Part shown: in pieces, positions 42,621 through 43,091 of the stretch
Position numbering within the stretch: position 1 is the stretch's first letter
Layout: each line of letters opens with the position of its first letter
Assembly (NCBI GenBank): GCA_964016885.1
Contig: CAXHJY010001150.1
Coordinates: 124,001 to 188,000 of the forward strand
From: Eledone cirrhosa
Taxonomy: Eukaryota
Direction of reading: 5' to 3'
DNA: 64,000 nucleotides
The notes under the pieces: generated by a model
What the model was told of the DNA's origin: nothing
The model's input: the letters and a program-made list of their open reading frames with translations, nothing else
Databases searched by the model: none
Position numbers and translations under genes: made by a program

Positions 42621-42759
42621 ATATATATATATAATGTAGGAGGTGAGTTTTATTGTAGTACAATAAAGCAATGCAGATATCGGATAAGAAGCACTCTACA
42701 GTTTGTGGGACTGGAGTATGCATAATATAAGATCAAAAGATGGTTAAAGGAGTTCAATA

Positions 42760-42830
42760 TATTTTATTATGCGCATTTCAAAAACAAACATCATCAAACA
42801 ATAATATTTGTGTTTTCATCAGATAAAACA
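42760..42830 (-). ncRNA. Type I hammerhead motif (family A)
   Basis: Reverse complement of 42953-43023. Confidence 0.85.
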
Positions 42831-42952
42831 GGAGAACATGATATGAAGGCTAAAAAAAACACTTGTTGATAGTGCAGTTTTAAATCAACATATGTTGATT
42901 TAAAACTGCACTATCAACAAGTGTTTTTTTTAGCCTTCATATCATGTTCTCC

Positions 42953-43023
42953 TGTTTTATCTGATGAAAACACAAATATTATTGTTTGATGATGTTTGTT
43001 TTTGAAATGCGCATAATAAAATA
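42953..43023 (+). ncRNA. Type I hammerhead motif (family A), sense to OTC
   Basis: TGTTTTAT-CTGATGA(42961)-stem II-GAAA(43004)-TGCGCA-TA-ATAAAATA; palindromic stem III ATGCGCAT. Confidence 0.88.
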
Positions 43024-43053
43024 TATTGAACTCCTTTAACCATCTTTTGATCT

Positions 43054-43091
<38 letters not shown>

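Follow-up and report, generated by a model that had tools for sequence, protein, structure and literature searches.

The perfect palindrome at positions 42722–43061 of the stretch of Eledone cirrhosa DNA analysed here (64,000 nt; hereafter the window) is, judged from its sequence, a pair of pLTRs from a young Penelope-like element (PLE) with Hydra-clade motifs. We propose, with a probability of roughly 0.74, that such a pair would be made in one insertion, in which both cut strands are primed on capped RNA and the resulting short copies are joined at their ATAT ends. The parts of the locus are as follows.

42722–43061, no strand: loopless perfect palindrome of 340 bp with arms of 170 nt
42636–42893, minus strand: long arm, +1 to +258 of the Penelope-like element's pLTR, without a difference from full-length copies
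42890–43061, plus strand: short arm, pLTR +1 to +172
42636–42721, minus strand: one-sided tail of 86 nt, +173 to +258, between two putative reverse-transcription starts
42890–42893, no strand: ATAT common to both arms, the first four bases of the putative capped RNA, as judged from other loci
42617–42635, no strand: left (TA)n target flank
43062–43086, no strand: right (TA)n target flank

The centre of the palindrome lies between 42891 and 42892, and the folding score (z = −33), like the genomic matches to the centre given below, rules out a chance origin. A sequence-only reading had described a perfect palindrome of about 340 bp with a whole hammerhead on each strand, which is confirmed at 42722–43061. 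The span that it gave, 42636–43061, is symmetric in this palindromic part and not as a whole, since the 86-nt tail is present on the left arm only. Given the one-sided tail, the stereotyped ends and the centre variants described below, an assembly artefact is unlikely. In public contigs, TA loose ends lie near +172 and +258, although the underlying runs are possibly the assembly's own source; two RNA runs were found, with 4% of the query words and as contigs only.

The long arm was searched against its own genome (3.0 Gb), and 40 of 424 candidate matches were scored: all 40, the window's own copy included, are 100% identical to it. The same palindrome with 170-nt arms recurs, with no letter changed, at seven or more other loci, so that the arms are specific to a subfamily and not, as had been claimed, to a locus. 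At two loci (L031 and L032), the arm sequence occurs as direct repeats about 3.9 kb apart that enclose an open 821-aa ORF, and these pLTRs are 100% identical to the window arm. The single parent ORF (P0002) contains a reverse transcriptase (RT) domain and, after it, an endonuclease (EN) domain of the GIY-YIG type, with YRDD present, RWT at residue 58, and DKT, a CxCX5C linker, CxxC, and CxH around conserved E and N at residues 144, 680, 780 and 808. Sequence searches of Pfam and PDB with the 821-aa ORF returned no relevant match; some members of the parent protein's atlas neighbours, at 0.96–0.98, have HTH_animal, GIY-YIG or RVT_1. DKT, CxCX5C, CxxC, CxH and insertion into (TA)n are Hydra-clade traits, the motifs being those named for that clade of PLEs (PMC8557442; this and the other papers are cited for the excerpts on which we draw). 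The family also shows the traits of EN+ PLEs, namely an RT-then-GIY-YIG parent between direct pLTRs, an inverted 5′-truncated copy, a one-ended tail and a hammerhead in the pLTR. The earlier suggestion of a PLE derivative is thus borne out by direct-pLTR parents with an intact ORF that match the arms. Exact patterns returned 13,617 pLTR motifs genome-wide, and 4,552 pLTRs in one parent context. As to the parent unit itself, an asparagine-rich linker separates RT and EN (2150–2500 of the L031 unit), and the 1.2-kb 3′ untranslated region has internal repeats that differ between subfamilies. At L033:1996–3629 (the same place as L007), three palindromic centres lie within 1.6 kb, inside a larger mirror of which flanking DNA is also part.

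Each arm carries a predicted ribozyme.

42953–43023, plus strand: type I hammerhead, core CUGAUGA at 42961, predicted cut after 43015
42760–42830, minus strand: mirror type I hammerhead, core start at 42822, predicted cut after 42768

On each strand, the order is stem I (UUUUAU), CUGAUGA, a long stem II, GAAA, a palindromic stem III (UGCGCA), UA and stem I (AUAAAA). Among the 15 variants compared, 99% of the cells in the three helices are paired, and eight pairs vary on one side and none on both; as the changes are one-sided only, there is no true covariation. A single arm has a folding z of only −0.9, and an Rfam search at the gathering cut-off did not report the hammerheads. The ribozyme sits within the pLTR with its predicted cut at +126, which rules out the cut as the position of the palindrome centre. 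Elsewhere in the genome, 32 fold-backs are centred on the stem III palindrome, 4 nt before the predicted cut (loci L150–L155); they could mark ribozyme-cleaved RNAs, or merely the native palindrome. The full region, taken as one RNA, is predicted to fold into a single 170-bp hairpin, so that both ribozymes would be masked. The expectation that a transcript would contain a ribozyme together with its antisense holds where transcription begins outside the element and fails otherwise: if the start site proposed below is active in the stub, transcripts would leave the centre outwards with one arm each, and the hairpin would form by outside read-through only.

Two neighbouring insertions of the same family provide a comparison within the window.

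15350–15686, no strand: second palindromic stub, older subfamily, with perfect arms of 87 nt and the same centre; the tailed arm is on the plus strand
43087–45462, no strand: separate adjoining insertion, older subfamily, 5′-truncated and inverted, with the short arm on the left and the tailed arm on the right

The stub at 15350 holds only one whole ribozyme: its left arm is without the GAAA half, and stem III of its right arm is one base short. The differences from its arms quoted in the sequence-only reading are present; of 164 positions compared between the two loci, 19 are different, and a parent-context pLTR of an older subfamily lies at a distance of 0.6% from the stub. The insertion at 43087–45462 retains a thumb and GIY-YIG coding remnant at 44004–45065 on the minus strand. 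This remnant is split by a short interspersed repeat at 44706–44873, flanked by what looks like an 18-bp direct repeat, and relatives of the interspersed repeat lie at about 14160–14240, 53750–53930 and 60780–60960. A second PLE family is present at 19400–24360, with inverted 163-bp ends that each contain a hammerhead-like core (19485 minus, 24275 plus; C-to-A core variant spacing) and a broken RT/EN remnant at 22927–24197, 35–44% identical to P0002. Hammerhead-like motifs of other families, with a TA-type palindromic stem III, occur at 18387, 20249 and 27370. Within 16042–17070, perfect inverted arms of 68 bp flank a (TA)n tract (16042–16289), followed by a PLE endonuclease remnant (34–38% identical to P0002). 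Unrelated families contribute further repeat pairs, head-to-head or inverted, at 24755–25330, 33850–34168, 45631–45960 and 50764–51128. A partial tRNA match at 56117–56174 on the minus strand, with a comparable stretch near 47370–47460, is probably the head of a tRNA-derived repeat.

The earlier reading had inferred that arm symmetry arises separately at each locus, by snap-back at insertion or by later conversion, and had proposed a phylogeny of left versus right arms across genomic copies. Copies are plentiful, with 747 loci sharing the centre. The palindrome sample consisted of the first 50 listed of these 747 centres and the window's two (52 in all). Leaving out 11 palindromes with an arm shorter than 160 nt, and then eight with rearranged arms, gave 33 of 41 loci, in which the arms of one locus differ by 0.9%; the distances between loci are 5.9% (long to long), 5.8% (short to short) and 5.9% (long to short). 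With the eight rearranged loci retained, the within-locus mean is 2.0%, against 6.3–7.7% between loci. The arms do not cluster by side, and subfamily governs their similarity. In the tree, for which about 50 of the 747 palindromes and 64–69 parent pLTRs were sampled, palindromes interleave with parent-context pLTRs over the entire range. The lack of side clustering, the interleaving with parents and the closeness of the 15350 stub to its older parent therefore indicate that symmetry is made at insertion from the subfamily active at the time. This part of the earlier inference stands: the contrast between 0.9% within and about 5.9% between loci, together with the interleaving, argues for symmetry arising anew rather than for a single palindromic ancestor.

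Homogenisation of the arms after insertion by gene conversion is highly improbable. Nine variants in eight loci are common to the two arms and occur in no other copy sampled, and a few loci have identical arms 1–2% from the nearest sampled parent, as conversion would produce. However, the within-locus distance of 0.9% is not below the nearest-parent distance of 1.1% (p = 0.15), which leaves the suggestion of later conversion without a sign in its favour. Variants confined to one arm are also more numerous than those common to both (the count is 115, with two misaligned arms contributing 59), and in the window there is nothing to convert, because its arms equal the young parent exactly.

The ends and the centre of the palindromes show how the symmetry may be made. 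Of the 52 sampled palindromes, 46 have a long arm that terminates at +258, and 40 a short arm that does so at about +169 to +178. The exact centre has 747 genomic matches, against none for the reversed control. Fold-backs on this CATATG centre thus number 747, those on a longer native palindrome 42 nt upstream 7 and those on the stem III palindrome 32, ratios that are rough because the patterns catch unequal numbers of subfamilies; these counts rule out that a native mini-palindrome alone sets the centre. An independent non-coding palindromic element of retrozyme-like type, transcribed and copied as an entire hairpin, would explain 747 exact palindromes with stereotyped ends, at least eight of them letter-identical. 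Yet the centre differs among loci (exact in 747, a one-base spacer in 272, a double G in 128, and many asymmetric), which argues against whole-unit copying, since a copied unit would keep its centre. Furthermore, palindromes are scattered throughout the parent tree, at about 1% from a parent-context pLTR (0.6% for the 15350 stub), and the window locus has no tandem array of units. An independent palindromic element is, therefore, very improbable, and largely refuted already.

The two-cDNA reading that we favour draws on a fixed inner breakpoint. In an unbiased break sample, the first 100 pLTR copies on C1, 53 copies continue into the upstream body, and the other 47 have their break at +1 (the A of ATATG) or no more than about 3 nt from it, two of these a few bases upstream. 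By genome-wide pattern, 574 copies begin at +1 straight behind TA repeats. The base before +1 is other than the genomic C in 5,377 copies; mutated read-throughs account for 4 of 96 inspected among these non-C copies, and the base is G in 41 of the first 100 listed. At 27 other breaks in the 100 copies on C1, it is G in 12, T in 9, A in 4 and C in 2. Where one base separates two full arms, it is G or C at 272 loci and A or T at 5, a count that is ambiguous by itself because a single G or C reads as genomic on the opposite strand. In a symmetric test, a non-genomic G is found on both arms at 128 loci, against 3 with the genomic C on both. A splice junction is ruled out as the source of the G, as the genomic bases preceding +1 are TC rather than AG, and the bases before the G vary. 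The both-arm G excess, together with the extra G at full-length L1 5′ junctions that has been ascribed to the mRNA cap (PMC11702581), suggests that +1 may be a capped transcription start and the extra G a copied cap. Alternatively, the G could be a C added by terminal transferase at any RNA 5′ end. In the open-licence literature searched, we found no paper on a cap signature at PLE junctions. No ORF-bearing copy starting at +1 was seen; the three real ORF-continuing copies, which were selected as such and belong to a rare class, read through, and inspection by eye found no clear TATA box. The window's own centre is an exact palindrome without the G, and our account of its origin draws on sister loci.

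These junctions bear on two further explanations. In a snap-back, a cDNA that reaches the RNA 5′ end would fold on itself, copy back to about +172 and join (TA)n via TA-like sequence. The arms would be identical at birth, the short end lies within TATATTAT, which resembles the target, and R2 cDNAs snap back after full-length synthesis (PMC11371274). The eight loci with otherwise absent variants in both arms, and 7 of 33 longer inverted copies that are nested, likewise speak for it. On the other side, loopless (747) or one-base-spacer (272) centres leave no space for a hairpin loop, and the 574 copies starting at +1 are without an adjoining inverted arm. Among the 33 longer copies, the tail-less arm extends further 5′ than the tailed arm in 13, so that neither contains the other (11 are symmetric and 2 unscored; one call among the nested, L128, is doubtful, this locus being a complex tandem). 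A single folding cDNA is thus insufficient for these 13, unless the centre was later deleted, and later asymmetric deletion of a palindrome centre can likewise yield non-nested arms. Snap-back at insertion, one of the two routes named earlier, therefore fits the junctions less well than two cDNAs do, and we consider it unlikely. For rotifer Penelope elements, self-priming with antisense RNA as the template has been proposed (PMC3846280), a mechanism that accounts in a general way for head-to-head orientation and palindromic junctions. The extra G, however, precedes the sense +1 on both arms (128 against 3), as a sense RNA 5′ end predicts, and the fixed outer ends fit internal starts on a sense template (PMC11167929); antisense self-priming is extremely improbable here.

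We thus return to two joined cDNAs, for which the following course is conceivable. The endonuclease would nick both strands of (TA)n, and each 3′ end would prime at either of two internal positions separated by 86 nt, at +258 on one end and +172 on the other. With a sense, capped template, each cDNA would run off the RNA 5′ end as ...CAACATAT(C). Two cDNA ends, ...CAACATAT, could then anneal via the self-complementary ATAT, and extension would give the exact centre of the window. Reverse transcriptases are capable of template jumping; annealing via AT, or a template jump that keeps the cap C, would give other joins and the G-bearing centre variants. The hammerheads would be passengers of the pLTR, copied through uncut. 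In line with such a course, a purified PLE enzyme cleaves both strands and extends them, with initiation at two internal sites that delimit the tail, and it works with uncut RNA (PMC11167929). The stub itself is probably a dead end. A bolder and, on balance, doubtful extension is that around half of the 13,600 pLTR copies are run-offs of capped sense RNA, and that stubs retain the start site, fire outwards and template new stubs, as an ORF-less parasite of Penelope whose palindrome would at no time be inherited and would be rebuilt at each jump by two-ended priming.

The object in the window is ordinary, a new family member with a known layout. Its family is a large natural experiment on how PLEs form inverted pLTRs, and the 128-to-3 G count, the fixed ends and the intact parents lead to a precise model (sense capped template, two starts, joined cDNA ends), which predicts the transcription start to the base. 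The proposal of an undescribed hairpin class does not hold, as both inverted pLTRs whose junctions are palindromic (PMC3846280, PMC8557442) and pairs of hammerheads on opposite strands (PMC4209133) are in print. PMC8557442 presents inverted 5′-truncated copies, tailed on one side, as typical of PLEs and calls the origin of their inverted pLTRs unresolved; in rotifers, palindromes at head-to-head PLE junctions were ascribed to antisense self-priming (PMC3846280); and in 2014, opposite-strand hammerhead pairs 100–700 bp apart were ascribed to truncated PLEs (PMC4209133).

With inverted EN+ PLE insertions as those papers portray them (PMC8557442, PMC3846280), the locus shares head-to-head pLTRs, a junction palindrome, a tail at one end, a microsatellite target and 5′ truncation. 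It differs in its 86-nt tail (30–40 there), in consisting of pLTR only, and in one inner breakpoint of the family that takes up about half of all copies and bears an extra G, a feature not described in those excerpts. The parent resembles the Hydra clade of C-terminal EN+ PLEs (Craig et al. 2021, PMC8557442) in RT followed by GIY-YIG, motifs, (TA)n and hammerhead, whereas it has RWT rather than RWK and a unit of 3.9 kb (Hydra mostly below 3 kb). Compared by eye with the supplement of that paper, its protein start and hammerhead differ from those of Hydra-1_Obim, so that it appears to be a different family. Like the PLE hammerheads of PMC4209133, the predicted ribozymes have a long helix II, a tiny palindromic helix III suited to dimers and opposite-strand pairing, although helix II is longer here (15 pairs). 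Non-LTR retrozymes, in the portion of bioRxiv 10.64898/2026.07.22.740005 drawn on, are likewise non-coding and pLTR-related with a type I hammerhead; they form direct tandem units, at least two hammerhead units by definition, whereas the window has two inverted arms only, identical to the coding parent's pLTR. PAc, a Poseidon element of the green anole (PMC11167929), belongs to another clade, yet shares two internal starts bounding the tail, an AT-rich target, extension of both strands and the use of uncut RNA.
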